Positions 3,858-41,949 of a stretch of DNA of 47,372 bases are shown piece after piece. Numbering within the stretch: position 1 is the first letter of the stretch; every line of letters starts with the position of its first letter. The stretch is from Bdellovibrionales bacterium (GTDB lineage Bacteria > Bdellovibrionota > Bdellovibrionia > Bdellovibrionales > UBA1609): positions 1 through 47,372 of the forward strand of contig JALHOQ010000004.1 of assembly GCA_022842925.1 (NCBI GenBank). The letters are read 5' to 3'. The translations under genes were made by a program, and so were the position numbers. The notes below the pieces were generated by a model, which saw only the letters and a list, made by a program, of their open reading frames with translations, was not told the DNA's origin and searched no databases.

Positions 3858-3896
3858 AACGAGAGGCTCTCACACGTTAATTTTGATTATACATAT

Positions 3897-6217: not shown

Positions 6218-6232
6218 TAGGAGAGCGAAACC

Positions 6233-9040: not shown

Positions 9041-9044
9041 TACC

Positions 9045-12618: not shown

Positions 12619-13639
12619 AAAACCCGGACTACTATTACTGCAACTGGGATCTCCCGCTGCGCCCACGCCCGGTGCTATATACAAGTTTTTGACTGAATTT
12701 TTGACCGATCCCCAGGTCATTGATATCCCGGCGATTCCGCGGCACTTGCTCGTGCGCGGAGTGATCGCTCCGCTGCGCTCACGCCGAGTGGCGGAGGCCT
12801 ATAAGTCCATTTGGACCGAAAAAGGTTCTCCGCTCATGCTCTACACCCAGGACTTCAGCGAAAAAGTGAAAACCGCGTTGGAAAGGCGCTTCGACGTCCG
12901 CTGGGCCGTTCGCTACGGTAACCCCTCGGTGAAGTCCGTGCTTGATGACTGGAACATAAACGAACTCTATGTTGTACCGCTCTATCCGCAGTACGCCCTA
13001 TCGAGCAGTCAGACGGCGATGGATCAAGTCAAGGACCTGGTGGCCAAGTCGGGCAAGTCGATCAAGATGTTTTTCTTGCGTGATTTCTTTGTCGAGCCCG
13101 AGTTTATCCACAGTCAAACGGCGCAAATTCTCGAGGCCGCGCGCGAATTTAAGCCCGACCACTATCTCCTCAGCTTTCACGGCCTTCCCGAACATCACGT
13201 AACCAAGCTCCATCCCGACAAGTGCTTTGTGCAGGCGGGTTGCTGCGAAAAAGTCACCAGCTCGAACCGTTGGTGTTACCGTGCACAGAGCATGGCCACA
13301 GCGCGAGCGTTGAAGGAGGCTCTGGGCCTTACCGGCGGACAGATGTCAGTCGGCTTTCAATCCCGATTAGGCAATCGACCGTGGATCAAGCCCTACACCG
13401 ACGAGCTTCTGCCGAAACTGGTCGAAGACGGCGTGCGCCGCCTGTTGGTGAGCTGCCCCTCATTTGTGTCCGATTGTTTGGAGACGTTAGAGGAAGTGCA
13501 GATTCGCTTGAAAGAGCAGTTTCTTGAGCTGGGTGGCACGGATTTAAAACTCGTTCCGGCGTTGAATGCCGAAGACCACTGGGTCGATGATTTTAGCCAG
13601 ATGTTGACCCGCCACAATCTGCATTGGTGGGAGTCGTGA
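12611..13639 (+). CDS. hemH: Ferrochelatase with an internal Cys insert ([2Fe-2S] type)
   Basis: LGSP, RYGNPS, PLYPQYA, SFHGLP, FQSRLG..PWIKPYT, FVSDCLETLEE; insert C-X5-CC-X9-C. Confidence 0.96.
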   Translation: MVKKPGLLLLQLGSPAAPTPGAIYKFLTEFLTDPQVIDIPAIPRHLLVRGVIAPLRSRRVAEAYKSIWTEKGSPLMLYTQDFSEKVKTALERRFDVRWAVRYGNPSVKSVLDDWNINELYVVPLYPQYALSSSQTAMDQVKDLVAKSGKSIKMFFLRDFFVEPEFIHSQTAQILEAAREFKPDHYLLSFHGLPEHHVTKLHPDKCFVQAGCCEKVTSSNRWCYRAQSMATARALKEALGLTGGQMSVGFQSRLGNRPWIKPYTDELLPKLVEDGVRRLLVSCPSFVSDCLETLEEVQIRLKEQFLELGGTDLKLVPALNAEDHWVDDFSQMLTRHNLHWWES

Positions 13640-15472: not shown

Positions 15473-18400
15473 ATGCGTAGGTTGATTAGTCTCACCGTTT
15501 CGTTGGCGCTCACGTTTCAATCGCTTCTCGCGATTCCGGCGTTTGCGCACGACAATTCGCAACCGGGGGTTCAGACAGGTGTTCGCGGCAGTCCCGTCGC
15601 CAGTGAACACGCGAAAGCTTGGGTTCACGCGGTCGACCCCAGTTCCATTTGGGACACGCCGACAGTCGACCGGGCTCCGGGCGAGCTCGAAAAACTTTGG
15701 GTCGATGCCCTGCAGAAGACCAACGGCAATCCACTCTCCCGCCAAGTCAGCGATGCGGACAAAGCGGCTTACTTCAACATGTGGATCGAACGTCTGCGCC
15801 ACAACGCCTTCGCGCAAGGTTCCGCTGATCCGGAATCCCGTTACTACTCCAACCACCCTCTTGACGTCTTTCAGCTGCTCGGCCAACGCGTGCATGTCAA
15901 GAATGAGCAGGCCGTTTTAGACGGAATCGAAGCGGGTAAACCGATTCTGAATCTCGTCGATTGGCAAAAATTAACTCTGACGATTCTCGATCAGCAAAAA
16001 AATCCCATCCTGCGCATCAATCCCGAAGGCCGAGACATTCGCCATCTGATCCCTGAAGATCGCGTCATTTCGCAAGGTCGCTCCTTCAGCACGGACTCCA
16101 CGACCGGAGCCACTCCGGGCGGCCTTTACACCTTTGAACTGAGCGCTCAGGGTCGGACCCTTCACTCCTTTCAGAACAACGTGAATTCGGTCGCGGTGAT
16201 TGGTCAGTATCTCGTGTTTTTGGAACCGTCTCGCGCGTTGGCTGATCACGGGGTAGTAAATCTCTCGTTTATCGATCTCGAATATTTCGAATCGGCTCTT
16301 GGTAAAACAGTACTGCCGGTTTTCCGCGTTCCGCTCGAAATCGGCGATCTGGCTCGCCAGCCCGATAAATTGAACCTTCGCTACACCCCTCAAGGCCTCG
16401 AAATCGGCGACAAGAAAATCTCGCCCGAGGTTTTCGAATTTTTCAGTCACTTGCAGCAGATGCCGTTCAACATGATGGTGTCGCTGACGGATCCGCAAAC
16501 TTATAAGACCTCAGCGCCGCTCGTCACCGAACTGATTGAAACATGGAACGAGGCTATGGAAGACCAAGCCAAGTCCATGGAAGCGCAATTCGAATCCGCC
16601 GGGATATCTTTCGATCTGATGCGCAAGTTCCAAGCGACCCAAATGGAAGAGTTAAAGCTCCGCTCCCAAGTGGGGGCGAATACCGCGGGCGGACCTCATG
16701 AAAATCTGACCAAAGCCAAAGACCAGCTGGAGCTCGAGGCCCTCGCCTCACTCGATAAAATTATTTTAGAAAACAACGGCGAAGAGGGCGTTGTGGACAT
16801 CGGGGAGTATCCGACTCCTCTCGCTCAGGATGCCAAAACCGCGACGGCCATGCGACTTCAAGCGGCCAAGGCTTTGGGTGAGCGCATCTCGCTCGATGTG
16901 AAAGCTCATACCGCGAAAACGAAAAAGTTTGGAGTGGAGCTCGTCGCCGATGCCGCATTCCAAACCGCGATGCAGAATTTTAACCAAACGATCGCCAAGC
17001 AGCGCAAACTCAGCAACCGCATGACCGCCTTCTGGTCGCGCTTGACCGTTCCCCAGCCGCTCGGCGCACCCAAAATTCAACAGGCCTTGGGTATGATCGC
17101 GGCGAGCGTTCATCACAAGGACTCGCAGGCCACCGAAGGTCTGGACCGATCCGCTTTGGCGCGAGAGGGCATCGCCCGGCTTCTCGCCAACGGCAAGGCC
17201 CGCATCGCTCTTCCTGTTTTGATTGGCGCGGGACTCGCCGCCATTTATCCAGCCGAAGCCGGCCAGTTTTACTATCAAGCTATAGAAGGCGTGCGCACCA
17301 GCATGGACGCCGTTCTGGGTTGGACCTCGAACTGGGGTTACTTAACTTCTGAAGCCTGGACAAAATCTTGGGCTTGGTTAAATGGCCAAGTGCTCGTGAG
17401 CACCTACTGGGTAGGTAACAATTTTGCCAACTTGATGACGGGACTTTCGGCTTTGATGGGCGGCTTGCTGCTGGCGGCGGGCGGACTTCACGTCGTGGTG
17501 AATACGACCACCTTTTTGAAGTCCATGATCAAGGGAGGTTGGAAAAAGTATCGGCAGGAAAATCTGTTTTGGCTGAGTCAGGCCAAGCGCTCCTTCATTC
17601 AGTACATCAATGAGGATAAGAAGGCCTTCTATGAGAGTCTAGCGCGAGCCGAAGCGAAGAAGCGCGGGCTCGAACTCCAGATATCCGGACGAGCCGACGG
17701 ACCTGGATTTAAAGGGGTTTTTCAAGATACGGCATTGAACGATCATACGGTTCTTTCCAAGGCCGAGCTGGAGCATAAGCCTCTCGAAATCGAGCTTCGT
17801 AGTGCCGACGGTCGCTACAAAGTTAAGGGAGTGCTCCACGCCCGGGGCGATCGCCATCATCCCAATTACACAGACGCCGACATAAAAGCTCGCGCGTGGA
17901 ATCTTTTCGATCTCACTCTTGCGGACGGACACAAACTGTCCCGCGCGCTGGAGATCACCGAGGGCGATACCGATCGTTTGTTCTCCGACGAGAATCTAGA
18001 AGCGGGCATTAATGTCGCCGTCAAATCAGAAAGAGGCGAAATGGTCGCCCGGCTGCAGAACTTGAACTGGACCGCCAATGAGAAGGCCGAACTGGATGGC
18101 GTGATGCACTCCCTCGAGGAGGCGGATCGAAAATGGGCCGCCAAGATGGAGCGTCTGGCGGATTTGCCCCTGATCGGCCGGTTCTTTAAGAAGTCTGATG
18201 GAGAGATCCGAACTTTGGGCAAGGCCCTCGGGCACTTCGCGATCGGTTATTCTTCGTGGACACATTCAACGCGCTTGTTTGGTAAGATTTGGAATCCATG
18301 GTTCTTGGTTCGGAATATCGCATTCCGCCCACGTACGTGGATGACCATGATGGTATATCCGAACTACTTTAATCGCACCGTCTTTGGCGCCAAAGAAGGA

Positions 18401-20032
18401 CACTTCGCGACCCAGTACAATGGTGGTAAGCGCACCCTTTTGGAGCTGCAGCTGTGGCAGAAGATCGGCGGATTTGTAATCGGCGATCAAGACGTGAAGA
18501 GTTTCTTAAAAGAACTGAACGAGTTCGAAAAAGAAGTGATTCCGATTGAGCAAACCTTGCACGCGGCCGCGATGCGCGCAGCATTCTTAAAGTTCGTGCA
18601 AAAGGGCGCGGAAGACGCCGATGTGGCGCGATTTCTAAGGAAGGGCGCGATCGTCGACCCGATGGATCCCCGACTGAATAACTCGGGCGCCATAAAAGGC
18701 GCGGTAGGGGCCGTGGGTCACGCGGTCTTCGGCAACGGAAGCTCCTCGGATAAGATCGACAAGAAATTGTCGGTTTACTTTAAAGCGTATTTCACAAAAC
18801 TTTACGACGACTCGATGGACGCCTACTTCCGCAAGGCTTTAGGCCCTCAAGCCGAGGGCCTGAGTACCAAAGAGTTGAAGGTGCTCGCGATTCAGAAAGA
18901 AGTGGATCTTAAAGTATCCGACGAGGACGCGATTGAGCTAGTTAAGGAAGTTGAATCCCGTGGTGAGGTTGAGCAGTATGCATCTCAGACGGCGGAAGAC
19001 TTCTTCGGCGGCGCCTGGGAGCGCATCAAGCAGACGCATATGTTTAAAGTGCGAAAGGCGCTCGATCCGTCGCACAACTACTCACTTAATCGCTATAAAA
19101 CGGCCGAGATTCAGATGGATAATCCCGAGGCCATGGCTCGCGCGACTCGCCAATATCTGGTGTCGTTGGTGGTCGATAAGCCAATGGAATTGATTTTCCT
19201 TCTACTCTTTGTCGCGGCGGTGGATCAGGGCGTGAACAAGCCTCTCCATGATGCGGCTTTTAGCGAGAACTCGCTCTTCCATATGTCACGGATGGTGTTT
19301 TGGAATGGTTATTTCACGGGCATTATGATCGCGCTCTTGGCGGATGTTTGGATGAAAATTCAGATGGACGCGCGGCTTGATCAGACCGGCGGTTTTGATG
19401 ATGTGGCCGATCAGGCGGACGCGAAGAAAGGCTTCTTGGCCTATTATCGCAAGAGCTTCTTCGCTAAAGACAATACTTGGTGGAGTAACCAGAAGTATGA
19501 AGTGAAGTTATCGCTGGCGAATATGCCGGCTTATTTCCTCACGGCATTGGTGACCAACTTGGCCTTCCTAGGGAGATTCGATTTAGACTCCTTCGTTACC
19601 GTGTATAAATCCATCCTGCTTCCCACGGGCGGGTTGGCGTTTAAACTTGAAAACTCCTTCGAGAAGTCGACGGCGTATGTGCTGGGGCGTGTGCCAGTGA
19701 AGTTCCATGTCGATCCGCGAGTTCGTGAGTACCGGAACAAAGCGATTGGAAAGCTGCGCTTTAAGTACAACCTGGTCTATAAGGCCTATGAGAACACCGT
19801 TTCGTCACTGCTCGGAAACTTGTTTAACATCACAACCGAGAAGCTTGGGCCCCGTTCGTTTGTACGTCAGTTCTACGGAGGATACTTTCCGACAGAATTG
19901 TTGGTGAATAACGTTCTTCGCCCTGTCGGTCGCTTAGGCGGCGTCTTTGAGAAGGTTGCCGCAGGTTGTGAGTTGTTCCTTACGAATAATCACACCGATG
20001 CGGTGAAGATTGAACCCAAGAAACCAAATTAG
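15473..20032 (+). CDS. Very large exported/membrane protein of unknown function, 1519 aa
   Basis: Uninterrupted 4.5-kb ORF; signal peptide ending AFA; two clusters of hydrophobic helices; no recognised catalytic motif. Confidence 0.9.
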   Translation: MRRLISLTVSLALTFQSLLAIPAFAHDNSQPGVQTGVRGSPVASEHAKAWVHAVDPSSIWDTPTVDRAPGELEKLWVDALQKTNGNPLSRQVSDADKAAYFNMWIERLRHNAFAQGSADPESRYYSNHPLDVFQLLGQRVHVKNEQAVLDGIEAGKPILNLVDWQKLTLTILDQQKNPILRINPEGRDIRHLIPEDRVISQGRSFSTDSTTGATPGGLYTFELSAQGRTLHSFQNNVNSVAVIGQYLVFLEPSRALADHGVVNLSFIDLEYFESALGKTVLPVFRVPLEIGDLARQPDKLNLRYTPQGLEIGDKKISPEVFEFFSHLQQMPFNMMVSLTDPQTYKTSAPLVTELIETWNEAMEDQAKSMEAQFESAGISFDLMRKFQATQMEELKLRSQVGANTAGGPHENLTKAKDQLELEALASLDKIILENNGEEGVVDIGEYPTPLAQDAKTATAMRLQAAKALGERISLDVKAHTAKTKKFGVELVADAAFQTAMQNFNQTIAKQRKLSNRMTAFWSRLTVPQPLGAPKIQQALGMIAASVHHKDSQATEGLDRSALAREGIARLLANGKARIALPVLIGAGLAAIYPAEAGQFYYQAIEGVRTSMDAVLGWTSNWGYLTSEAWTKSWAWLNGQVLVSTYWVGNNFANLMTGLSALMGGLLLAAGGLHVVVNTTTFLKSMIKGGWKKYRQENLFWLSQAKRSFIQYINEDKKAFYESLARAEAKKRGLELQISGRADGPGFKGVFQDTALNDHTVLSKAELEHKPLEIELRSADGRYKVKGVLHARGDRHHPNYTDADIKARAWNLFDLTLADGHKLSRALEITEGDTDRLFSDENLEAGINVAVKSERGEMVARLQNLNWTANEKAELDGVMHSLEEADRKWAAKMERLADLPLIGRFFKKSDGEIRTLGKALGHFAIGYSSWTHSTRLFGKIWNPWFLVRNIAFRPRTWMTMMVYPNYFNRTVFGAKEGHFATQYNGGKRTLLELQLWQKIGGFVIGDQDVKSFLKELNEFEKEVIPIEQTLHAAAMRAAFLKFVQKGAEDADVARFLRKGAIVDPMDPRLNNSGAIKGAVGAVGHAVFGNGSSSDKIDKKLSVYFKAYFTKLYDDSMDAYFRKALGPQAEGLSTKELKVLAIQKEVDLKVSDEDAIELVKEVESRGEVEQYASQTAEDFFGGAWERIKQTHMFKVRKALDPSHNYSLNRYKTAEIQMDNPEAMARATRQYLVSLVVDKPMELIFLLLFVAAVDQGVNKPLHDAAFSENSLFHMSRMVFWNGYFTGIMIALLADVWMKIQMDARLDQTGGFDDVADQADAKKGFLAYYRKSFFAKDNTWWSNQKYEVKLSLANMPAYFLTALVTNLAFLGRFDLDSFVTVYKSILLPTGGLAFKLENSFEKSTAYVLGRVPVKFHVDPRVREYRNKAIGKLRFKYNLVYKAYENTVSSLLGNLFNITTEKLGPRSFVRQFYGGYFPTELLVNNVLRPVGRLGGVFEKVAAGCELFLTNNHTDAVKIEPKKPN

Positions 20033-20461: not shown

Positions 20462-22129
20462 GTGTTCAAGCGGATTGGTCCCAGTTTTTATTTGATTGGC
20501 CTTTTGTTGCTCCTTCTGCTCGCGCACAGTTGGCACGGACCCGATATTTGGTATCACTTGTTTTGGGGTCGCGATCTGATCGAAAATGGCAATTGGATAC
20601 CCGATCCCCCGGTGGTGTTGGCGCAGCCGATCCCGGCTAATCCGTATTGGATTTTCCAGTCCCTGCTTCATTTTACTCACTCCCTAGGCGGGATATATCT
20701 AATCAGCCTCTTTTTCGCCGCGCTCTGGGTTGCCATTGGGTGGCTGTGGTTGCGGATCAGTGAACTTTATAAAAACCCACTTGGCGCTTGGGTTTTCGCG
20801 GCGTTCGTAATTTGTATGCAGCTGCGTTTTGAACACCGACCCGAAATCCTCTCCTATTTTTTTATAACTCTTTTTATTTTTCTGGGACTGGGCCTACGCA
20901 ATGCCGGAAAGTGGAGCCTTAAGGTTCTCACCACTCTGGCCCTCCTCCAGGTTATTTGGGTGGGCTGTCACGGCTATTTTGTGTTCGGGCCTTTTTTGGT
21001 TGGATCAATGGCCTGGCGATGCGGTGCGAAGCTGACGAAAGCCGTTTTTTTAACCATGGGCTTTCTTCTGCTGACACTAATTTCACCGTTTGGCTATCGA
21101 GTTTGGGAGAGCGTCTATCTTTATGCGCAGCTCGGGCGGGGTACGGCGGAGTTCAATTCCGAATTGATGTCTCCGCCATTCCTTCTCTCTTTTTTTCCGA
21201 ATGCGGTTTTTTGGCTGATATGGGCGGCTGTTTTCGCGCTGACTCTTTTTTCGCTTAAGAAGCGCGACTGGGTGTCGGCCGTACTGGCGATGGCGGCGTT
21301 AGTTCTATCGGCTCAGGCGATTCGGAACATGCCATTGTTATTTCTGCTTACACCGCTTCTTTGGCGCCACCTCCCAGCTGGAAAAAGGTGGCTTAATTAT
21401 GCGCGACCGGCTGGGGCGGCATTGGCCGCGGTTGTTCTTTTCCTCTCGGGCAGTGTGGTGTCCGGACACTATCATCGCTGGGTCAACAGCCTTTCGACGT
21501 TCGGGGTTAAGCTAGAATGGGCCTCGTATCCGATCGGTGCGGTCGAGTTTCTTAAAAGTTCCGGATTTAAAGGAACATTGTTCTGTGATTCCTACGACGG
21601 TGGATACATCGAATATCATCTCGATGGAGTGCGGATCGCGGGAGACTCGTATTTCGCCGATAGCGAAGTGACAAAACGGTTTTTCGCGTCGATCCGCTCG
21701 CCTGAACATTTGGCCCATCTCGATTCTCAGGTCCGTTTCGATGGATTCTTAATCAACATTGAGAATCTAGATATTATGGACATGCTTTTATCTCAGCCCA
21801 GTCTAGTGGTGGTTTACGCTGACTCCCACCGTGCGGTCTTTTTAAAAAAGGAGCGGGCGCCCGCGGGAGCTGTGGGAGACCTTTCGGTTTTTCGCTATTA
21901 CCATGGCGAGGATCTGCGCCATTGGGCCTATGCCTTTGGTGTCGTGTCATGGACGGGCCTTGCGGCCAAGCGACAAAATGTGAGCCTGATTAAGAAAATT
22001 CTTACAGATATCGGCGGGGCTCAGCATGTGCCCGAGGATTTGTTTCGGATTGCCCTTAAGTTCGCGATTGACCGTCGTGATGACGAGGTGGTCCGAATGC
22101 TCGCCGCGATCAAAGACCGAACCTTATGA
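20462..22129 (+). CDS. Polytopic membrane protein, probable GT-C-fold glycosyltransferase-like
   Basis: About 12 TM segments; PDIWYHLFWGR after TM1, RPE, W..CHG.F, and a periplasmic domain YPIGAVEFLK...YDGGYI. Confidence 0.65.
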   Translation: MFKRIGPSFYLIGLLLLLLLAHSWHGPDIWYHLFWGRDLIENGNWIPDPPVVLAQPIPANPYWIFQSLLHFTHSLGGIYLISLFFAALWVAIGWLWLRISELYKNPLGAWVFAAFVICMQLRFEHRPEILSYFFITLFIFLGLGLRNAGKWSLKVLTTLALLQVIWVGCHGYFVFGPFLVGSMAWRCGAKLTKAVFLTMGFLLLTLISPFGYRVWESVYLYAQLGRGTAEFNSELMSPPFLLSFFPNAVFWLIWAAVFALTLFSLKKRDWVSAVLAMAALVLSAQAIRNMPLLFLLTPLLWRHLPAGKRWLNYARPAGAALAAVVLFLSGSVVSGHYHRWVNSLSTFGVKLEWASYPIGAVEFLKSSGFKGTLFCDSYDGGYIEYHLDGVRIAGDSYFADSEVTKRFFASIRSPEHLAHLDSQVRFDGFLINIENLDIMDMLLSQPSLVVVYADSHRAVFLKKERAPAGAVGDLSVFRYYHGEDLRHWAYAFGVVSWTGLAAKRQNVSLIKKILTDIGGAQHVPEDLFRIALKFAIDRRDDEVVRMLAAIKDRTL

Positions 22130-29870: not shown

Positions 29871-31964
29871 TTACTTAAGCGGCTTCATCAGAAGCCGCAG
29901 TTCGCACGGATCGGCGAAACGGGTTCCTTCGGGAGCCCTTTCGCCTTTCTCAATCAGCTCATCGATTACCTTCAAGCTCGCCTTATCGCCGCGCCAACGG
30001 GGTAACGCTCGCATTTCTCTCAGTCGCGCCACCACTTCCAAGCGCTCCCAAAGTGTACGGAGAATAATGTCCTCTTTTAGCACCTCAGGGATTTCAATCA
30101 TCTCGGGCCCATCGGTTTTCATGAGGGCGGTCGATGTTTGAGTCGGTTCCATCGGCTTGGGCGGGTCAATCAATCCGACGGCGGCGTTTAACACCTCGCT
30201 GGCATAGCTTCGAAAATCATCTTTTAAATCACTGATTCGCACTTCTCGGTAATGATCCGGCACGACGCCCACATTTTCGATCGGCCATCCATCCGGAAGT
30301 TCGGCGTAACCGTACGTACAGCGGAACGACATCTCAGAGCCCGGCATGCTCGCGGTATTGCGGTAAACAGGGCCACCCAAGCCGCAGGAGGTGTCGCCCA
30401 TCACTATGGCGCGTTTGTTGTTTTGCATTTGCGCCGGAAAGAAGTCACCCCCGCTGCCGGACATACGGTCATTGAGCAAAAGTATGGGTTTGGTGAACAC
30501 ACCTTCTTTGGCGGCGAAAACCTCGCCTGGCTTTTCGGCAAATTGCGGAAGTGAAAGTTCGAACGACGGGCCAAGGCCGGTCCATTCTTCGCCATTTTCG
30601 AAGCGGCGCTTGAGTTCGTTGTAATGGCGCTCATGTAGCCTCATCTCTGCGTAGACCCGAGACGTCTCGTCGATCGGATCGCCCTCGAAGTGTGGCTTAA
30701 TAAGGTTGAGCATGGTGATGTTGAGTTTGTAATCAGCCAAAACCGTTTGCATGGGCTGGTCGCCACTGGCGAAAAGGCTGAGCAGGCGGGAGCCGTAATA
30801 CACGTAACCGCCCGTATTACTGAGTTGGTCGATCACCAGCACGTCCACCATTTTCTCGGCTTTCTTAAGCGCCTGTGCGAGCCACTGGTATTCCGCTTTT
30901 ACGCCCGCCATTCCGTCGGGTGGGTTATAGCTGGGGATTCTTAGCACACCGATATTCTTGCCACCGTGTCGAACCATATAGAATTGCAGGCGCGAAACTG
31001 GCGAGAGACGCTTAAGTTCCGGCCTAATCATCGCCGAGTTAGCCTCATGCTGCGGCTTGGACGATTCCTCTTTGGTGCGAGTGATCTCCACATTTAAAGT
31101 GGCTCCGATGTCGACTAGGCTATCGGCCGCGTCGGTCTTGAGCAGTCCCGTTTTAAAGTAGCTGCGCACGGTTCCGCGTACGCCATAAGGCACGGCCACT
31201 TCCTCGACATTCATTTTTTGTAAAGGATCGCGCACTTCCTTAGGAAAGCGGGCGAGCAACATATTGTAGTCGTGGCGGTAAACCCAACGGAGACGGGCGG
31301 TGAACTCTTTACCGTCGCGACGAAGTTTTAAGATCGCGGTGTCGCCCTCGCGCTTCGGGCGCTGGAAGGCGTGGAAGTTATTGACGATGGTGAGCATGGC
31401 GGTTTGGTAGCGGTCACTAAAGGTGCCACCCGACATATAAATCAAATTGCGCTTGGCGTGTTCATTTACGGGTACGCCGTCCACTTCGATGATCTCGTCG
31501 CCCGGTTGGATATCCTTCATCGAAGAGTAAGGTACGATCAGGTCCTTTCGAATCATCGTCACAATCAGTTTTTCGCCAACCGATACAGCGATCACACCGA
31601 GCGTGGCCGACTCATTCGTTTGACGGGAGATATTGACGTGGCCGTCGCGCAATTCGGCGATCATGCCGACCATAAGCTGACGAAACTCTTCCGGCGGCAG
31701 AACCTTGCGATCGGATGGCGGGTCCCAGCCTAAATCTTCTTCCAGGGTCTTTCCTTGGTCGATTAATTCTTCGTATTTAGCAGCTAGTTCGTCTAGATCG
31801 GTCCCGAACATTTTGTTCTTAAATTTGATCATGCCGTAATGAGTTTTCAGTTCGGCGATGATCGCGTCGAGTGCAATCAACTGGTCATCTTTGGTTTTGA
31901 GAGCGTAGGCATTTGTAAATATAAAGAAACAGGCGAGGCAAAGCATCGCACGGAAGATATTCAT
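29871..31964 (-). CDS. Secreted S41-family protease with a PDZ-like domain, CPAF-like
   Basis: Signal peptide; LRDGHV, PGDEIIEVDG, LRIPSY, VIDQLSNTGG, SGSGGDFFPAQMQ, IENVGVVPD. Confidence 0.85.
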   Translation of the reverse strand: MNIFRAMLCLACFFIFTNAYALKTKDDQLIALDAIIAELKTHYGMIKFKNKMFGTDLDELAAKYEELIDQGKTLEEDLGWDPPSDRKVLPPEEFRQLMVGMIAELRDGHVNISRQTNESATLGVIAVSVGEKLIVTMIRKDLIVPYSSMKDIQPGDEIIEVDGVPVNEHAKRNLIYMSGGTFSDRYQTAMLTIVNNFHAFQRPKREGDTAILKLRRDGKEFTARLRWVYRHDYNMLLARFPKEVRDPLQKMNVEEVAVPYGVRGTVRSYFKTGLLKTDAADSLVDIGATLNVEITRTKEESSKPQHEANSAMIRPELKRLSPVSRLQFYMVRHGGKNIGVLRIPSYNPPDGMAGVKAEYQWLAQALKKAEKMVDVLVIDQLSNTGGYVYYGSRLLSLFASGDQPMQTVLADYKLNITMLNLIKPHFEGDPIDETSRVYAEMRLHERHYNELKRRFENGEEWTGLGPSFELSLPQFAEKPGEVFAAKEGVFTKPILLLNDRMSGSGGDFFPAQMQNNKRAIVMGDTSCGLGGPVYRNTASMPGSEMSFRCTYGYAELPDGWPIENVGVVPDHYREVRISDLKDDFRSYASEVLNAAVGLIDPPKPMEPTQTSTALMKTDGPEMIEIPEVLKEDIILRTLWERLEVVARLREMRALPRWRGDKASLKVIDELIEKGERAPEGTRFADPCELRLLMKPLK

Positions 31965-32203
31965 TTTGATTTTCCCCTTACCCTAATTATGGAACCACAA
32001 TGGCTATAAACGTCTGAATTCCCGGTCAAATTCGAAGGTGGGTTTGAATTTTTTCTTGGAAAAATTCCACGGCCGCCCGAATTGCTAACCCTCCGCGGCT
32101 AAGGCCGGGTCTGATGTTTGAGAGACGGCAGGACGCTATCTCTCAGGTTGATCAAGTCCAGCGCTGGGCTTCCATTGGTGTTCGGGGTCGAAGGAGTTCT
32201 CAA

Positions 32204-32326
32204 ATGAGTGATCTCGGTTGGCTTTACTTCTTTTTGGGATTGATGGGAGTGAACATTCTGGCGTCGGTCTTGTACTTCACGGGCTTTCGCCATCTACGCT
32301 CGACTTTTCGTCGCCGATCGCGTTAG
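32204..32326 (+). CDS. Small 40-aa membrane protein upstream of queA
   Basis: Strong GAAGGAG RBS; MSDLGWLYFFLGLMGVNILASVLYFTGFRHLRSTFRRRSR has one TM helix and an Arg-rich tail; ends 12 nt before queA. Confidence 0.55.
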   Translation: MSDLGWLYFFLGLMGVNILASVLYFTGFRHLRSTFRRRSR

Positions 32327-32338
32327 ATTCGGCGCCTT

Positions 32339-34449
<2,111 letters not shown>

Positions 34450-34518
34450 GTCGTCGTTGCCATTTCAACCTCTAAAAGGCCATAAAAGAGCCCTTAAGTA
34501 ATTTAAGGAGTCTGTATT

Positions 34519-34845
34519 ATGTTTTCATCTATGGCTTGGGCTCAAGCGGCCGCTCCCGCAGCTGCGACACCGTCCATCTGGGAACAACTTTTTCCCTTCG
34601 CGATCATTCTTCTCGTTTTCTTCTTTTTGGTTATCCGCCCGCAACAGCGGCGCAACCAGGAGCAACTTAAATTCCGCGGCGGCCTAAAAAAAGGCGATTC
34701 GGTTTTTACAACCAGCGGAATTCTCGGCACTATTGAAGGCCTCACCGATCATGTGATCACTTTGCAGATCGCGACCGGTGTGAAAATCAAAGTTCTGCGT
34801 ACGGCGATTGCCGGGGGCGCATCGGAAGAGTTGGAGAAGAAATGA
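34519..34845 (+). CDS. yajC: Preprotein translocase subunit YajC
   Basis: TM helix, then IRPQQRR and LKKGDSVFTTSGILG; lies between tgt and secD. Confidence 0.95.
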   Translation: MFSSMAWAQAAAPAAATPSIWEQLFPFAIILLVFFFLVIRPQQRRNQEQLKFRGGLKKGDSVFTTSGILGTIEGLTDHVITLQIATGVKIKVLRTAIAGGASEELEKK

Positions 34846-36530
34846 GCGAGGGGTTAAAGGGTCGGTCGGTCATTGTATTGCTGTTTCTAGCATTCTGTGT
34901 CGTGTACCTGCTGCCGAATTTCGTAAAGCTGCCCGAAGGCTGGTGGTTTCATAAAAAGAAAATCAACTATGGTCTCGACATTCAAGGCGGCGCCCATCTT
35001 GTTTACGGCGTGGATGTGAACGGCGTATTGGCCGAGCGAACTGAGCGCATGGGTCGGACACTGACTGAGGAACTTAAGGAACGGAATGTCATCGCTGAAG
35101 TGGCACTAAAGGGCGAGCGCAAGGAAATGATCGCTCTCACCGCGAAGTCGACTGAAGATCGCGCCAAGATTTCCGAATTTTTACAAGATCAGTATCCAGC
35201 GTGGCTGCAGATTGTTTCGGATTCCGGCACCACCGTTGAAGTTCGCTACTACGACGCAAAAATGTCCGAATTTCGTGAACAGATTTTAAGTCAGGCGATT
35301 GAAGTGATTCGGAACCGCGTCGATGAATTCGGTGTGGCCGAGCCGGTCATCGCCCAGCAGGGCAGTGAGCGAATCGTGGTTCAGCTCCCAGGGTTGGCCG
35401 ATCCCGCCGGCGCCAAGGAGCTGATCAATAAAGCCGCCAAGCTCGACTTCCGCATGGTCGATGAAAGCATGACCACCGAGCAGGTTCAAAACTTGGTGAC
35501 GGAAGCGGAGAAGCAGGGTGGTTTCACTCTGAACAAAGATCTGCGCTACGTCCAGTACACAAAAAAGGTAAATGAAGTCTTGAAGGGGAAGCTGCCCCCG
35601 AACACGATGATCGCTTTTGAAAAGCTCAGCAATGCGACCTCTCTCGAGGCGGGTAAGCGGGCTTGGTTGCTTAGAACAGACACAGAAGTCACGGGTGATC
35701 AGCTTGAGGACGCCCATGTGGGTTACGGCGAGTTTGGTGATCCGAACGTCGTATTCAACTTCAATCCCGAGGGGCGGCGTAAGTTTGCTAACTTGACCGG
35801 CAATAATATCGGGAAGCTGATGGCCATTGTGCTCGACGAAGTGGTTTACTCGGCTCCGCAAATTAAAGACCGTATCGACGGGCAGGGGACCATCACTCTC
35901 GGTGGTCGCAGCTTTGAAGAAAAACAAAAGGAAGGCCTGCTGATCGCCACGGCTCTCCGCGCGGGTGCGCTACCGGCGGCTCTTGAGCAATTGGAAGAGC
36001 GTTCAGTCGGTCCCTCTCTTGGTCGCGATTCGATCGAGAAGGGCAAGACGGCGGGTTATATTGGCCTCGCACTAATCACGATATTCGTGGTCTTCTACTA
36101 TAAAATGTTCGGCCTGGTGGCCGCGCTCGGACTCGGTTTGAATGTGGTTGGACTGTTGGCCGTGCTCAGTGCCCTTGGCGCCACTCTCACTTTGCCGGGT
36201 ATCGCTGGGATAACACTTACGGTCGGTATGGCGATTGATGCCAATGTCATTATTTTTGAACGGATTAAAGAAGAGTTGGCGCGTGGTGTGCCCATGAAGC
36301 TCGCCATTAAGGACGGCTTTCAAAATGCCTGGTCGGCGATCTTCGATTCCAACGTCACGACCGCGATCGCCGCCGCTGTCTTGATTTATTTCGGCTCGGG
36401 ACCCGTTCGCGGTTTCGGTGTGACTCTAATCGCGGGAATCGCCACGACCATGATCACAGCTGTATTCGTGACCCACTGGCTGCTCGACCTTCTGGTCGCG
36501 AAGTCAAAAAACCAAAAGATCGCGATTTAG
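34842..36530 (+). CDS. secD: Protein translocase subunit SecD
   Basis: GLDIQGG, IRNRVDEFGVAEP, VGPSLG, GMAIDANVIIFERIKEE, DSNVTT. Confidence 0.98.
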   Translation: MSEGLKGRSVIVLLFLAFCVVYLLPNFVKLPEGWWFHKKKINYGLDIQGGAHLVYGVDVNGVLAERTERMGRTLTEELKERNVIAEVALKGERKEMIALTAKSTEDRAKISEFLQDQYPAWLQIVSDSGTTVEVRYYDAKMSEFREQILSQAIEVIRNRVDEFGVAEPVIAQQGSERIVVQLPGLADPAGAKELINKAAKLDFRMVDESMTTEQVQNLVTEAEKQGGFTLNKDLRYVQYTKKVNEVLKGKLPPNTMIAFEKLSNATSLEAGKRAWLLRTDTEVTGDQLEDAHVGYGEFGDPNVVFNFNPEGRRKFANLTGNNIGKLMAIVLDEVVYSAPQIKDRIDGQGTITLGGRSFEEKQKEGLLIATALRAGALPAALEQLEERSVGPSLGRDSIEKGKTAGYIGLALITIFVVFYYKMFGLVAALGLGLNVVGLLAVLSALGATLTLPGIAGITLTVGMAIDANVIIFERIKEELARGVPMKLAIKDGFQNAWSAIFDSNVTTAIAAAVLIYFGSGPVRGFGVTLIAGIATTMITAVFVTHWLLDLLVAKSKNQKIAI

Positions 36531-36542
36531 GGGATTGGGACA

Positions 36543-37520
36543 ATGTCGACAATGACAAACACGCAAAAGAAAAACGACTGGGGCCGCTTCGATTTCCTAG
36601 GGGTTTCCAAGTACATCACGATCATGTCGGTTAGCTTCACGGCTTTATGCTTGGTGCTCATCGCGGTGAAAGGTTTCAACTTCGGAGTCGACTTTGCCGG
36701 CGGTATTGAGATCCAAGTCATGTTTAAAGAAAACGTGGACGCGGCTCGGGTCCGATCCTTTATGTCCGACTCCGGATTTCCCAAAGCCAACGTGCAGAGC
36801 ATCGGCGGGCAACACGAGTACTTGATTAATATTGAGAACCTGAAAGACGCCAGTGAAGAAGAGACCAACAAGTACATCACCGCTACGGTGGAGAAACTTA
36901 AAGGGTCATTGGCTTCGACCTTTGCTCAGCAAGGTGCCGAAGTTCGACAAGTCAATACGGTCGGCCCGCAGATCGGCAAAGAGCTCCGCCGAAATGGTAC
37001 GCTGGCCGGCTTTTACTGTCTTTTGTTAATTTTGATTTATGTCGGTCTGCGCTTTGACTATCGTTTTGCTCCGGCCGCCGTCTTCTGTTTGATCCACGAT
37101 GCGGTTATTACCATGGGGCTTTACTCGATCTTCGGTTGGGAATTCACGGTGCAAACGATGGCCGCGGTTCTTACGATCATCGGTTATTCGCTGAACGATA
37201 CGATCGTGATTTTTGACCGAATTCGAGAGAATCAAGAAGTACATCGGGACAAGGATCTCTATTGGATCGCGAACCGTTCCCTAAACGAAACCCTTTCGCG
37301 CACGATTTTGACGTATGTGACGACTAATTTCACGGTGATGGCGATGTACATCTTCGCGGATGGAGTCATCAAAGACTTCGCCTTAACTATGATGATTGGT
37401 ATGGCGCTGGGCGTGTTCTCGACGGTTTACGTCGCGACACCCTTGATGTTGTTGGCCGATCACTATCAAAAGCAGAAGCGGCAGCGCATTCAGCAGGCCG
37501 CCTATTCCGGGGGCAAATAG
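36543..37520 (+). CDS. secF: Protein translocase subunit SecF
   Basis: GVDFAGG, VGPQIG, IGYSLNDTIVIFDRIRE, TLSRT. Confidence 0.98.
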   Translation: MSTMTNTQKKNDWGRFDFLGVSKYITIMSVSFTALCLVLIAVKGFNFGVDFAGGIEIQVMFKENVDAARVRSFMSDSGFPKANVQSIGGQHEYLINIENLKDASEEETNKYITATVEKLKGSLASTFAQQGAEVRQVNTVGPQIGKELRRNGTLAGFYCLLLILIYVGLRFDYRFAPAAVFCLIHDAVITMGLYSIFGWEFTVQTMAAVLTIIGYSLNDTIVIFDRIRENQEVHRDKDLYWIANRSLNETLSRTILTYVTTNFTVMAMYIFADGVIKDFALTMMIGMALGVFSTVYVATPLMLLADHYQKQKRQRIQQAAYSGGK

Positions 37521-37706
37521 ATGATTCGCTGGAACGCCGGTTTCATTCGTGGTTTGGCCGAAAGCGTGCTCGCAAGAGCACGCGTGATCCGGAGTTCCCT
37601 CACTCAGTACAACGCGAGCGGCACGCAAGATCCCGCTGCGAAACAGCGGAAGCGCAAAAAAGCCGCGGTCAAGCGGGCGCGCACGCCTCGCCGGCCCAAT
37701 GGATAA
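37521..37706 (+). CDS. Possible small basic protein bridging secF and queC
   Basis: ATG directly follows the secF TAG and its stop overlaps the queC start region; Arg/Lys-rich; no recognised family. Confidence 0.35.
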   Translation: MIRWNAGFIRGLAESVLARARVIRSSLTQYNASGTQDPAAKQRKRKKAAVKRARTPRRPNG

Positions 37707-38361
37707 AGCGGTCGTACTTCTTTCTTCCGGCCTCGACTCCTCTTACAACCTGCTTAAGGCCACGGGCCAATTTGAAGTCGCTCTGGCTCTCACGTTCGAC
37801 TATGGCCAAAAGGCCGCGCAGCGAGAGTGCGAGCGGGCCGCAGCCTTGGCTAGACACTATAAGGTTCCCCACAAAGTCATTTCGCTCCCTTGGTTTAAAG
37901 ACTTCACTAAGACGACTTTGGTCGGTGGTGGTAAAATCCCCAGCGGCGCCGATGTGAAGATCGATGATTTAAAACAGTCGCTGGAGACGGCGAAGTCGGT
38001 GTGGGTGCCCAACCGTAACGGAATCTTTTTAAATATCGCCGCCGGTTTTGCTGAAGGATTGGGTGCGAAATACATTATCCCCGGTTTCAACCTCGAAGAG
38101 GCGCAGACTTTTCCCGACAATAGCGCCGCGTTTTTAAAATCCCTTGATGCGACTTTTGCCTTCTCCACCCAGAACGGTGTACGCACCCACTGCTATTCGG
38201 CGCACTTAAACAAAACTCAGATCGTCAAAGAGGCGATGGTCGCCGACCTGCCTTTTCAGGTGCTCTGGCCCTGCTATCTCGATGGCGACAGGTGGTGCGG
38301 AACCTGCGAGTCCTGCCAGCGGTTTAACCGGGCCCTTGCCGCTAATGGATTGAAAATATGA
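37699..38361 (+). CDS. queC: 7-cyano-7-deazaguanine (preQ0) synthase, variant type
   Basis: PP-loop SSGLDS, FDYGQ, WVPNRNGIFL, Zn ligands WPCY...CGTCESC. Confidence 0.93.
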   Translation: MDKAVVLLSSGLDSSYNLLKATGQFEVALALTFDYGQKAAQRECERAAALARHYKVPHKVISLPWFKDFTKTTLVGGGKIPSGADVKIDDLKQSLETAKSVWVPNRNGIFLNIAAGFAEGLGAKYIIPGFNLEEAQTFPDNSAAFLKSLDATFAFSTQNGVRTHCYSAHLNKTQIVKEAMVADLPFQVLWPCYLDGDRWCGTCESCQRFNRALAANGLKI

Positions 38362-38927
38362 AGTCCCGTTTTGTTGATTCAAACGAAAACTATGACGGCT
38401 CTCAACTCGTGAGCCTGCGCAACTACCTGAAGCATGAAATGTTAGGCGATTCGGTGGTGGCGTGGGTCGGTCCCTGTGAAGTCGAGGGCGACCATATGGT
38501 CGACGGCGAAGATCTGCTGGCGGGGAGTGAGATCCGGGGCGAAAAGATGCTGCACTTTATTGTGGAGCTTTTCGATTCCACGCTTTTCGCGGCCGTGGGC
38601 ATTCAGCGCTTGATGGCCGCCATCGTAAAAGACGCTCTCATGTTGATGTCACTTGAAAAGCTGCTGATTTGCGATCTCCGGCGCGAGGGCGACGATATTT
38701 TCGTTGCCGATAAAAAGTTCAGCATTTCCATCGCGACACAAAGTCCGACCAGCTCCTTAATTCATTTCGCCGTAAATGTGGTGAACCGGGGAACCCCTGT
38801 CCCTACCATAAGTCTGGAAGAATTCGGTCTGGATGCCCAAGCCTTCGCCCTTGAGGTGATGCAGCGGCTGACAACCGAAGTTGAAACCATTCGCGAGGCC
38901 ACTCGCAAAGTGAAGTGGGTGCGCTAG
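38358..38927 (+). CDS. DUF366 family protein
   Basis: YDGSQL, HMVDGED, MLHFIVE, RREGDDI, K.SISIAT.SP, IHFAVNV; ATGA overlap with queC. Confidence 0.85.
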   Translation: MKSRFVDSNENYDGSQLVSLRNYLKHEMLGDSVVAWVGPCEVEGDHMVDGEDLLAGSEIRGEKMLHFIVELFDSTLFAAVGIQRLMAAIVKDALMLMSLEKLLICDLRREGDDIFVADKKFSISIATQSPTSSLIHFAVNVVNRGTPVPTISLEEFGLDAQAFALEVMQRLTTEVETIREATRKVKWVR

Positions 38928-38956
38928 CGAGCGAAAGGTTTTTTGAAGGAGGGGGA

Positions 38957-40195
38957 GTGAGCTCAGTATTGGTCCTTTTAGTCTTTCTATCGCCGTTGGT
39001 CTCCGCCACATCTCGAATGCCGGTGGATCTACCACCCGATGCGAGCGCCGCCCAGCTTAAGCGAATCCTCGAACAGCAAGGGCAGTTTCACCTTTTTCGT
39101 GAGGGTGTGATTCCACTAGGGCCGGTTGAGGCGGCGATTCTTTTGGGCGAACGAAATCTCTCCTGGCTGAAGTTGATCAACAAGAATCGCGCGGTGCCGA
39201 TTTCCTTTAGCAGTCAGGCCACCACGGGTGGCATTTCGATCGACAAACCACATAAGTACTCGCCCGCCATTATTTTGGAGTGGAAAGAAGAGTTGAAGCG
39301 GGATTTGCCCGAGCGCATGCGCCAAACGCTTTTTGAAGGTGGAGTACTCTCGGCGGAAGTGCCGACCTCAGAAGACGAATATATAAAATGGGGCCGCAAA
39401 GTGGACCGCCTTTATCAGGCGGCGCTGCGCTGGAAAACGCTGGAGCCCTGGCGCGATCACTACGAGCAGAACCGAAGCGCCGATATTCGCGGGATATATT
39501 TTTTTGGCCGTATGGATTATAAGACCCGGCAGCAAAAGCTCGCGAGCGCCAAAGATTGGACGGAGCAAGAGCAGCGCGATCTCTCCGATTGGCTGGTCAG
39601 CATGTGCCTGAATAATTTTGGCGACGTAGCGTTCTGTCGCGGTCAAGTGAGGGAAGCCGTCGTAAGTGGAGAATCCCTTATGCCACTTTACGGAATGTGG
39701 GAGATGTCGGCTCAGATCACCTTCGATGAGAAATTTAGCGTGCAAAAGTCCCGCAGTGACGTGCGCTTCCAGGCTGATCATGTGTTGCATGTGCCATTTC
39801 GCGACCCACTCGACGAAGCGGTCCGCGAATTTCTCCGCCACAATGTCGAAGACGAATGGAAATTCGGAGAATGGGCCCTTAAGCTGATCTTCGGCCCCGA
39901 TGCCGCCGCCCACATACGCTTTGAAGCCGGCGTCACGCCCCATGTGAACGGTCTCGGCGGCGACCGCATCACCATGAACGCCGATCAACCCTTAAGCGAG
40001 TACGACGCCCAGTGGGCAATCCGCCACGAGTTCGGCCACGTCCTCGGCTTCCCAGACTGCTATGTCGAATTTTACGACTCCGAAGCGGAGGCCATGGTCA
40101 CCTATCAGATCGACGTGACGAATCTGATGTGCAGCCGTCATGGACGGCTGCAGGAGAGACATGTGAACGAACTGCGGCGGGTCTATAGGCGATAA
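38957..40195 (+). CDS. Secreted zinc metallopeptidase (metzincin-like)
   Basis: Probable GTG start at 38957 after GGAGGGGGA with a signal peptide; HEFGHVLGFPDCY and Met-turn NLMC. Confidence 0.82.
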   Translation: MSSVLVLLVFLSPLVSATSRMPVDLPPDASAAQLKRILEQQGQFHLFREGVIPLGPVEAAILLGERNLSWLKLINKNRAVPISFSSQATTGGISIDKPHKYSPAIILEWKEELKRDLPERMRQTLFEGGVLSAEVPTSEDEYIKWGRKVDRLYQAALRWKTLEPWRDHYEQNRSADIRGIYFFGRMDYKTRQQKLASAKDWTEQEQRDLSDWLVSMCLNNFGDVAFCRGQVREAVVSGESLMPLYGMWEMSAQITFDEKFSVQKSRSDVRFQADHVLHVPFRDPLDEAVREFLRHNVEDEWKFGEWALKLIFGPDAAAHIRFEAGVTPHVNGLGGDRITMNADQPLSEYDAQWAIRHEFGHVLGFPDCYVEFYDSEAEAMVTYQIDVTNLMCSRHGRLQERHVNELRRVYRR

Positions 40196-41031: not shown

Positions 41032-41949
41032 TCACCTAGGAATTTCCCGCGCAATCGCTTTTCCGGCGGCGGCTAAGGCTTCTTCAGCCTTTTTGAAGCT
41101 GGTGAAGTTTTCCGCGCAGGCACCCACGGAAAAAGTGGCTCCCGACGGGACCGTGAGAATTCCAAAATCGCAGATCCGCTGGATTTGCGTTCCCGTTTTG
41201 TGTGCGAATTTGAATTCCGTAGGGAAGTGCGCTTTGAGACGGGCCTTTCCTGTTTTACATCGGGACATGATCTTAAAAACTTCCTCCGAAACAAAGGGGC
41301 TTACGGCCTTCTTCTCGGCCAGCAATTCGAGAAGGTCGGCGTATCCTCTCAACGTCCCGCTATTGTATCCCTTGGCGTAGTAGGCCGCGAACGCGCTCTC
41401 TAAGTTCGGCTGGCGCAGTTTGGAAACCGGAACCTGAACTAATTTGGCGAAATGTTCATAGCGCTTGCGATAGTCTTTCTTACTTTTAATATCAATGTAG
41501 TTGTTTCCGTCGAGACGGACGGCCTTGGGGTGCAGTTCGCTATACGCCAGCCTCCGCACATCCAGCAACGTCGTGATCGGAGAAAACTCGCGCGGCACCA
41601 ATTTTCTCAGGGTTTCATTGATATGATTCAAACCCACCCATTCGATCAGCATGTCGGATGAGGCATTGTCACTCTTCACCAGCGTCTGCTCGAGAAGATA
41701 CCGTATCGTGAGCCGGGTGCCGATTTTTTGAAAGCTCGTTTCGCCGGAGCCGTCCCGGCGCATGGATGGATCAAAAACGATCGTTTGATCGAAGGCCATC
41801 TTGCCGGCTTCAATCTGCTTTAGAACTTCAACCGCGATCGGCACTTTTACGGCCGAGGAGTAGTACCAGATCCGGTCATGATTGAGACCGGCAAAGCGTC
41901 CGGTCGAATTTTCACGAACGTAGAAGCCGATATTTCCGTCGAAGCCCGA
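41032..41949 (-). pseudogene. 5'-truncated class A beta-lactamase-like serine hydrolase
   Basis: The frame continues upstream of the called GTG as GFDGNIGFYVRENSTGRFAGLNHDRIWYYSSAVK (SxxK); SDN and HKTG present; no ATG/GTG/TTG or signal peptide before the in-frame TAG at 42088-42090. Confidence 0.75.

Follow-up and report, generated by a model that had tools for sequence, protein, structure and literature searches.

A variant QueC and its DUF366 neighbour in a Bdellovibrionales queuosine locus as a probable two-component preQ0 synthase

The stretch of DNA analysed here, hereafter the window, comprises 47,372 nucleotides (nt), positions 1 to 47,372 of contig JALHOQ010000004.1 in the Bdellovibrionales bacterium assembly GCA_022842925.1. 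It carries a gene of the QueC family that is directly followed, on the same strand, by a gene of the DUF366 family. An earlier note on this DNA, made from its letters alone, had proposed that DUF366 is a partner of a QueC type in which FPDN stands in place of the canonical YPDC motif. A specific tie of DUF366 to this QueC type was supported by gene adjacency, by fusions of the two genes and by co-occurrence in three phyla, in one of which the genes are unlinked. FPDN-type QueC and DUF366 together are probably a two-component synthase of 7-cyano-7-deazaguanine (preQ0), for which we infer a mechanism below. The features at the centre of the analysis are the following:

37699..38361, plus strand: QueC-family gene, an open reading frame (ORF) of 220 amino acids, assigned with Pfam and NCBIfam
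38358..38927, plus strand: DUF366 gene, an ORF of 189 amino acids, assigned with Pfam family PF04017
38358..38361, plus strand: ATGA overlap of the queC stop and the DUF366 start, from the bases as read

The variant QueC and the DUF366 protein

At the junction of the two genes, the start codon ATG of DUF366 shares bases with the stop codon TGA of queC, exactly as the earlier note had described. Such an overlap would be the usual sign of translational coupling. Of 52 related loci that carry the two genes on the same strand, 22 show an overlap, 21 a separation of 0-30 nt, and the remaining nine one of 31-126 nt. With the genes overlapping or no more than 30 nt apart in 43 of these loci, chance does not account for the tight junction.

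The window QueC matched PF06508 with an E-value of 8.9e-47 and 159.7 bits (cut-off 22), and it passed TIGR00364 narrowly, with 163.9 bits versus a cut-off of 150.3. Solved QueC structures were matched only at an E-value of about 1e-13. The available text of Libby et al. (Biochem J 2026, PMC13329287) describes a canonical QueC signature, tested by mutagenesis, that consists of SGGxDS, YxQxHxxE, VPxRN, YPDC, a Lys and a zinc motif of the form C(x)8CxxCxxC with a Tyr after the first Cys. The mutant proteins Y35A, R99A, Y131A and Y189A were dead, and Y131F was partly active. According to the same text, canonical QueC converts 7-carboxy-7-deazaguanine (CDG) first to the amide 7-amido-7-deazaguanine (ADG) and then to the nitrile preQ0, in two ATP-dependent steps.

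We compared the window QueC with this signature and took the invariant residues of the FPDN type from an alignment of 43 clade members. The PP-loop was present as S9-S-G11-L-D13-S14, with S9, G11, D13 and S14 invariant, and reads S-[SGA]-G-[LI]-D-S across the clade. The sequence SSGLDS, previously taken as a mark of the variant, is therefore not diagnostic, as its second position can be S, G or A; both LLSSGLDSS and NLEEAQTFPDNS are present in the translation. VPxRN was likewise retained as W102-V-P-N-R-N107, which is (near-)invariant across the clade, as was the zinc motif C192-Y193...C200-x2-C203-x2-C206, which is invariant and has a first spacer of 7 residues versus 8 in the canonical form. 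A Lys is found at K172. By contrast with the canonical YxQxHxxE, the window protein reads Y35-G-Q-K-A-A-Q-R-E43, which retains Tyr, Gln and Glu, has no His and is one residue longer in its spacing. In place of YPDC it has F138-P-D140-N141, where the aromatic residue is kept and the Cys is changed to an invariant Asn. In addition, FPDN-type proteins share an insertion before an invariant WVPNRNG and an invariant N-x-E-E (N131-x-EE134 in the window).

That the FPDN type represents a separate clade was confirmed in a tree of 72 QueC sequences, in which a single split with a Shimodaira-Hasegawa-like approximate likelihood ratio test (SH-aLRT) value of 100 divides 55 FPDN-type sequences from 17 others. 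All 55 come from DUF366-bearing genomes, and these belong to at least 6 named phyla. The DUF366 tree mirrors well-supported sub-clades of the QueC tree. QueC proteins linked to DUF366 are 36-68% identical to the window QueC, as compared with 27-31% for canonical QueC proteins of the same phylum. As a separate observation, five genomes of family f13 (G042, G081, G018, G034 and G113), which are without DUF366, hold a second QueC-like paralogue of 187-196 bits with a GYRDC motif. These second copies include L054 and L055, the latter being a long branch among the non-FPDN sequences of the tree.

The DUF366 protein matched PF04017 over the complete model (positions 1-184 of 184 of the hidden Markov model; E-value 3e-56, 190.3 bits), and it matched the sequence of 2ddz (PH0223), a structure of its own family, with an E-value of 3e-30. 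No NCBIfam model and no PHROG family matched it. The conserved residues are Y12, G14, G38, D49, D52, H66, E70, Q83, R109, D113, K120, S124, S132, H136, N140, E174 and K184; these 17 polar or glycine positions are (near-)invariant across 103 sequences, including those from genomes without a variant QueC. Judged from the alignment, this pattern of conservation is enzyme-like.

An AlphaFold model of DUF366, computed with an alignment of 80 sequences, reached a predicted local distance difference test score (pLDDT) of 97.6 and a predicted template modelling score (pTM) of 0.92. When this model was compared with 48,161 representative solved chains, 2ddz was the top match (Z 28.3, root mean square deviation 1.3 over 183 residues), and ranks 2-19 were all occupied by biotin/lipoate ligases, LipB octanoyltransferases or annotated family members. 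Matches to the biotin/lipoate ligase family had Z-scores of 9.6-13.1 with 148-172 residues aligned. Chains resembling class II aminoacyl-tRNA synthetases, HisZ among them (Z 7.2-7.5), ranked after the ligases at Z-scores of at most 8.9. Foldseek retrieved the same ligase fold with a probability of 1.00 and E-values of 8e-8 to 7e-6. For the modelled protein, these matches confirm the biotin/lipoate protein ligase fold that the earlier note had named.

At the level of sequence profiles, the 80 DUF366 sequences were searched against 177,635 PDB sequences, and after 2ddz only the Aquifex biotin protein ligase was retrieved (E-value 0.044-0.11). This alignment pairs RxGDD with KWPND and IHxxxN with IGIGIN, and places K120 opposite the second Lys of KKxSG. 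With hhalign, the same 36 columns were aligned to biotin protein ligases of the same clade (E-value 1e-3); the probability was 1.1% for LipB and 0.3% for QueC, which served as a control. The invariant K120 aligns with the Lys of the ligase motif KKxSG in these two weak profile alignments only. In BirA and LplA, the Lys of the KxxG motif holds the acyl-adenylate. No gene for an acceptor domain was seen near DUF366 in the window and the related loci.

Distribution and co-occurrence of DUF366

Co-occurrence within the phylum of the window was assessed in a sample of 151 genomes, in which the DUF366 and QueC coordinates of both searches were combined. DUF366 was found in 80 and QueC in 141 of these genomes. 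DUF366 was carried by 10 of the 11 genomes of family f1, by all nine genomes of f2 and of f6, by 19 of 20 in f9 and by 8 of 9 in f10, and by none of the 20, 23 and 14 genomes of families f7, f13 and f14, respectively. A QueC gene is located directly upstream of DUF366 on the same strand in 75 of the 80 DUF366 genomes. As for the other five, two have no QueC match (G020, with DUF366 at a contig end, and G060, which is 75% complete), one has its QueC on another contig, one has the genes in convergent orientation (G140), and one has them 2.5 kb apart (G111). The closest relatives of the window DUF366, at 64-65% identity, are labelled Bdellovibrionales in public sources.

The presence of DUF366 is paralleled by the type of QueC. 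None of the 80 DUF366 genomes has a QueC of at least 200 bits with the Pfam model, and the best QueC in the 63 DUF366-negative genomes with a QueC had a median of 234.6 bits. Three of these 63 fell below 200 bits: one match is truncated, one consists of fragments, and one gene lies at the end of a contig in a family whose other members bear DUF366. The QueE type of the window genome, on the other hand, is also present in 18 of the 20 genomes of family f7, at 40-48% identity, and this family has a canonical QueC and no DUF366. Because f7 has the same QueE type without DUF366, we conclude that DUF366 tracks the QueC type and not the QueE type.

To look beyond the phylum, 1.84 billion representative proteins were searched with a DUF366 profile, and only 533 clusters were retrieved at an E-value of at most 0.001. 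In addition, one genome per prokaryotic species was scanned with two conserved DUF366 peptides, which yielded 406 relatives from bacteria and archaea. The best 80 are all bacterial, and the earlier view of DUF366 as mostly archaeal was thus not sustained. Among control archaea, a DUF366 match was found in M. jannaschii and M. acetivorans and none in H. volcanii and S. acidocaldarius. The gene-context counts outside the phylum rest on the best 80 of the 406 loci, which belong to Planctomycetota (Kuenenia, Brocadiaceae), WOR-3, Stahlbacteria, TA06, Nitrospirota, Bacillota (Desulfosporosinus, Pelotomaculum, Desulfotomaculum, Thermosyntropha and heliobacteria), a metagenome-assembled genome of the Sericytochromatia, and others. 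In 47 of these 80 loci the radical S-adenosylmethionine (SAM) protein QueE is encoded directly downstream of DUF366, and in 24 an FPDN-type QueC is encoded directly upstream. The Bacillota operon has the order PTPS-QueC-DUF366-QueE-FolE-SurE, with representative members confirmed by Pfam. Where QueC is not adjacent, the genome usually encodes an FPDN-type QueC at another site, as was seen in three of five genomes and then in five of five further genomes of WOR-3 and Stahlbacteria.

Two further samples of 151 genomes each were scored with a profile of the variant QueC. In the sample around the Bacillota-type genome of Heliorestis, which may overlap with the members of the profile and is then partly circular, DUF366 was found in 19 genomes and the scores were bimodal, with 296-333 bits in 15 genomes and at most 158 bits in 31; all 15 high-scoring genomes are DUF366-positive, with the two genes abutting. 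For the Planctomycetota sample, the profile was built without any sequence from this phylum. Here, DUF366 was found in 45 genomes, and the variant profile scored at least 203 bits in 48 genomes and at most 173 bits in the rest. Both genes were present in 45 genomes, DUF366 only in none, the variant QueC only in three, and neither in 103. Just two of the 45 QueC-DUF366 pairs lie on one contig, and in one of these the genes are 1 Mb apart. The association of the two genes holds with and without linkage.

Fusions of the two genes were also detected. In the Bdellovibrionota genome G122, a single ORF of 475 amino acids (L058) consists of QueC at residues 17-237 and DUF366 at residues 276-471. The 438-residue protein P0231 has the same architecture and is 36% identical to L058. 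A search for longer proteins with the window DUF366 gave no fused forms, and the same search with the DUF366 part of P0231 gave only forms fused to QueC, Clp_N or SPOR, four proteins in total. Structure prediction for the L058 fusion from its single sequence was uninformative (pLDDT 36.3). One apparent DUF366-QueE fusion, L128, was rejected as an artefact of ORF calling, with its parts in different frames and only the radical SAM domain seen by Pfam.

A putative two-component preQ0 synthase and its alternatives

The ligase fold of DUF366, its position at the CDG node, the fusions and the near-constant pairing with an altered QueC are the reasons for which we regard the pair as a probable two-component preQ0 synthase. 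The FPDN-type QueC would be a PP-loop, zinc-binding ATPase that works only together with DUF366. Of the canonical residues it retains the ATP loop, the Tyr of YxQ, VPxRN and the four zinc Cys residues, but neither the YxQxHxxE His nor the YPDC Cys. DUF366 would act at the CDG node, between QueE as the producer and QueC as the consumer of CDG, and would most likely bind CDG or the CDG adenylate, thereby aiding one of the two ATP-dependent steps, the formation of the amide ADG from CDG and of the nitrile preQ0 from ADG, both of which canonical QueC carries out by itself. The physical complex of QueC and DUF366, its substrate and the division of the half-reactions are what we infer from this arrangement. 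The known fold relatives of DUF366 bind a carboxylic acid and ATP, and hold the acyl-adenylate.

A more specific division of labour is conceivable, though we rate it as rather doubtful. DUF366 might itself adenylate the carboxylate of CDG to make CDG-AMP or ADG, leaving the FPDN-type QueC only the dehydration of the amide to the nitrile. If this were true, a step known from a single enzyme would be shared by two proteins in much of the bacterial domain, and DUF366, as a minimal relative of biotin and lipoate ligases, would be a ligase-fold enzyme with a free nucleobase as its substrate. Such a division would further account for the finding of DUF366 beside other QueC types and in phage clusters, some of which may end at ADG or CDG derivatives.

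Several observations weigh against the two-component synthase. Firstly, kin genomes are not independent, and the co-occurrence counts exceed the number of evolutionary events. Secondly, a common fold shows no function, the similarity of DUF366 to biotin ligases is weak at the sequence level (hhalign probability 20.5%), and PF03099 matched none of five DUF366 proteins even at an E-value of 10. Thirdly, DUF366 can be present where the variant QueC is not. The Heliorestis genome (G153) has the gene order DUF366-QueE-FolE, and its QueC is encoded elsewhere and is only of the canonical YPDC type, while its DUF366 keeps every conserved residue. Two more genomes of the same sample, G186 and G221, are like Heliorestis, and G310 has no QueC match. 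The IMG/VR phage contigs L172 and L175 pair DUF366 with a YRDC-type QueC that keeps both the His and the Cys, in the order PTPS-FolE2-..-QueE-phosphoribosyltransferase-QueC-x-DUF366 near a family A DNA polymerase, and phage contig L173 has DUF366-FolE2-phosphoribosyltransferase with no QueC within 11.8 kb. The WOR-3 chromosome G151 has DUF366-QueE and no QueC; its tgt is truncated, and its queuosine pathway may be decaying. Finally, G125 carries both QueC types, and three Planctomycetota genomes, which may be incomplete, have a variant QueC and no DUF366 match.

Together these findings show that a variant QueC implies DUF366, whereas the reverse does not always hold. Such an asymmetry is compatible with DUF366 having its own activity, one that canonical QueC is likewise able to provide. 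Since DUF366 occurs without the variant QueC in places, readings on the side of QueE and readings of a stand-alone function also stay alive.

With respect to the genomes and contigs named above, we made some additional observations. In the Heliorestis genome, Tgt and a canonical QueC are present and no QueF domain was found with PF14489. The contigs L172, L173 and L175 are phage-like and hold 7-deazaguanine gene sets with FolE2, a phosphoribosyltransferase, dUTPase, a family A polymerase fused to uracil-DNA glycosylase, and DUF366; as far as the gene content indicates, these sets hint at deazaguanine incorporation at the nucleotide level. A single DUF366 match in the phage database, L151 (MW495066.1, 'Microcystis phage MaAM05', 273,876 bp), has no QueC alongside. 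Its surroundings are annotated as secF, glyS, mtgA, engB, fabI and fliM, and look bacterial-chromosomal rather than phage-derived.

The first of the alternative readings has DUF366 as mainly a partner of QueE, which would take over CDG or released ammonia or otherwise assist, and explains the link with QueC by the shared operon and pathway. It draws on the 47 loci with QueE directly downstream, on the DUF366-QueE pairs without an adjoining QueC in WOR-3, Stahlbacteria and heliobacteria, and on the fully conserved DUF366 that heliobacteria retain beside a canonical QueC. However, QueE is unlinked to DUF366 in the phylum of the window, the same QueE type is present in f7 without DUF366, and co-occurrence tracks the QueC type in three phyla. 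Moreover, fusions were found with QueC only, L128 being an artefact, and six of the seven checked WOR-3 and Stahlbacteria genomes have a variant QueC elsewhere. We therefore consider this reading unlikely.

To a similar degree, we find it improbable that DUF366 is an independent enzyme or binder of 7-deazaguanines without contact to QueC, be it a sensor, a salvage protein, or an ATP-dependent amidase or ligase that turns CDG into ADG or into a conjugate. Such a role would suit the ligase fold with its enzyme-like invariant residues, the occurrence of DUF366 with three QueC types and once without QueC, and its presence in the phage FolE2/phosphoribosyltransferase clusters, including L173. Yet the variant QueC is almost never present without DUF366, as illustrated by the counts of 15 of 15, 45 of 48, and 75 of 80 adjacent. 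These counts imply a dependence of this QueC on DUF366, and the fusions and start/stop overlaps suggest a one-to-one stoichiometry. It is very unlikely that que operons simply carry DUF366 along as an unrelated gene of the ligase type, such as one for a protein-acylating enzyme: its fold relatives are protein ligases and many Planctomycetota loci show DUF366 without a que neighbour, but the unlinked co-occurrence in that phylum (45/0/3/103), the QueC fusions and the embedding of DUF366 in preQ0 operons of several phyla and phages argue against this.

The synthesis of preQ0 is taught as a path of four enzymes, namely FolE, QueD, QueE and QueC. From preQ0 are derived queuosine, archaeosine, the deazapurine antibiotics and the 7-deazaguanine modifications of phage and bacterial DNA. 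On the present data, the last step towards preQ0 in many lineages requires, or at the least is invariably accompanied by, a fifth protein. Among these lineages are Bdellovibrionota, Desulfotomaculia, Desulfitobacteriia, Nitrospirota, WOR-3, Planctomycetota with relatives of the anammox bacteria, and some phages. The association also provides a first functional context for DUF366, a family with a structure deposited since 2007 and no function. Furthermore, annotations of FPDN-type proteins as 'QueC' may not denote self-sufficient enzymes, which bears on pathway reconstruction, on the heterologous production of preQ0-derived compounds and on complementation experiments. In openly searchable texts, supplements and subscription journals aside, no paper names DUF366, PF04017 or COG2029, and the sole mention of PH0223 is in a two-hybrid table. 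DUF366 is absent from the main texts of recent papers on the QueC family and on deazapurine genome mining, PMC13329287 included, the supplements of which may list PF04017. Likewise, supplements aside, no paper tying DUF366 to QueC turned up.

Genomic surroundings and comparison with known systems

The queC-DUF366 pair is preceded on the same strand by two genes for downstream steps of queuosine synthesis and by three genes that separate these from queC:

32339-33352, plus strand: queA, assigned with Pfam and NCBIfam; downstream step of queuosine synthesis
33289-34449, plus strand: tgt, assigned with Pfam and NCBIfam; downstream step of queuosine synthesis
34519-34845, plus strand: yajC, between tgt and queC
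34842-36530, plus strand: secD, between tgt and queC
36543-37520, plus strand: secF, between tgt and queC

For tgt, the longest ORF begins at 33289 and the true start may be later. The same-strand order queA-tgt-yajC-secDF that had been reported from the letters was found again; the gaps had been described as very short, and this does not apply between secF and queC, where 178 nt intervene. This gap showed no Rfam or riboswitch match and no promoter- or terminator-like site in scans of 31900-39300 and 37300-39300. The Tgt translation contains AFDEC and GGFSVGE, and the motifs FDEC and SVGE that had been noticed before are accordingly present. Also in agreement with the earlier note, Pfam and NCBIfam scans found no queD, queE or queF in the window.

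The genome from which the window derives measures 3.66 Mb in 320 contigs, is 92.6% complete and has one QueC and one DUF366. Sequencing runs listed for the locus comprise four DNA runs from one study and none of RNA. Its QueE is encoded on contig C34, unlinked to DUF366 (TIGR04349, 263.7 bits), FolE followed by a PTPS-family gene on contig C11, and QueG on contig C35. Neither QueH nor QueF was found in this genome at the stated completeness. As QueF is present in 143 of the 151 phylum genomes, including the same genus and 10 of the 11 genomes of the same family, the lack of QueF is most likely an assembly gap. The genome otherwise holds the de novo queuosine pathway that requires preQ0. The idea that DUF366 replaces a missing pathway enzyme, be it QueD, QueE or QueF, was therefore rejected, as these are present in the genome or its relatives.

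Two observations concern individual pathway genes. The only good QueD candidate of the window genome, L004:1477-1956 on contig C11, 3' of FolE, scored 51.9 bits versus a QueD equivalog cut-off of 89.25; no CxxxHGH spacing was obvious by eye, and the gene could be a folate-type PTPS paralogue. Eight small genomes of family f6 with DUF366 (G001, G011, G020, G028, G036, G044, G052 and G068; 1.3-1.7 Mb) have a variant QueC in seven cases (none in G020) and QueE in seven (none in G028). Their QueF-domain matches are weak, with E-values of about 1e-5 to 1e-6 for ORFs of 167-204 amino acids, and may be FolE instead of QueF.

Elsewhere in the window, an ORF of 426 amino acids (38915-40195) lies just 3' of DUF366 and overlaps it by 13 nt if translation does begin at the GTG. 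No Pfam family matched this ORF; it has a zincin-like HEFGH motif and a weak match to the M6 metalloprotease model TIGR03296 (E-value 0.0044), and was not seen beside DUF366 in other loci. A heme biosynthesis cluster at 3852-13639 comprises a GlutR_N-like gene and genes for porphobilinogen deaminase, a class-III aminotransferase, URO-D, a HemN-like radical SAM protein, an amine-oxidase-type oxidase and ferrochelatase, with a histidine kinase and response regulator pair inserted at 7512-9040. The ORFs at 15473-20032 (1519 amino acids), 517-2370 (617 amino acids) and 20462-22129 (555 amino acids) had no Pfam match at 1e-5, and an ORF of the class A beta-lactamase family (PF13354, 9.2e-33) is located at 41032-41844 on the minus strand.

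When compared with known systems, the variant QueC belongs to the same Pfam and NCBIfam families as the canonical QueC of E. coli and B. subtilis (PDB 3bl5, 2pg3). Both share the PP-loop, the Tyr of YxQ, VPxRN, the aromatic residue before PD, the Lys and the four-Cys zinc site, as well as the position in the pathway and operons with QueD, QueE and FolE. The variant differs by its insertion before VPNRN, by the invariant NxEE and by the absence of the YxQxHxxE His and the YPDC Cys. It is set apart as a clade of its own and is accompanied by DUF366, whereas canonical QueC acts alone.

DUF366 shares its fold with BirA, LplA and LipB (PF03099), and in the weak profile alignments K-K-x-S-x-S, GDD and H..N of DUF366 stand opposite KKxSG, PND and GIGIN of the ligases. 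Unlike these, DUF366 has no PF03099 match, lacks a C-terminal domain and any recognisable N-terminal motif of the GRGRxGR or LplA type, and is only 189 amino acids long. In genomes it is accompanied by 7-deazaguanine enzymes rather than by carboxylases or lipoyl domains. The arrangement is reminiscent of short-form HisG, for which HisZ is an obligatory extra subunit with a synthetase fold, while long-form HisG works alone. This likeness is an analogy only, as HisZ is a regulatory paralogue of histidyl-tRNA synthetase and DUF366 may be catalytic.

The QueC scaffold has repeatedly been re-fitted and partnered, as exemplified in the available parts of PMC13329287 and of bioRxiv 10.1101/2023.04.13.536721 by Gat-QueC, the phage QueC* (a proposed ADG synthase), Cap9 and QatC. 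In those parts of the two sources, none of these is described with DUF366. The FPDN clade stays in operons for tRNA-queuosine and preQ0, not in defence systems.

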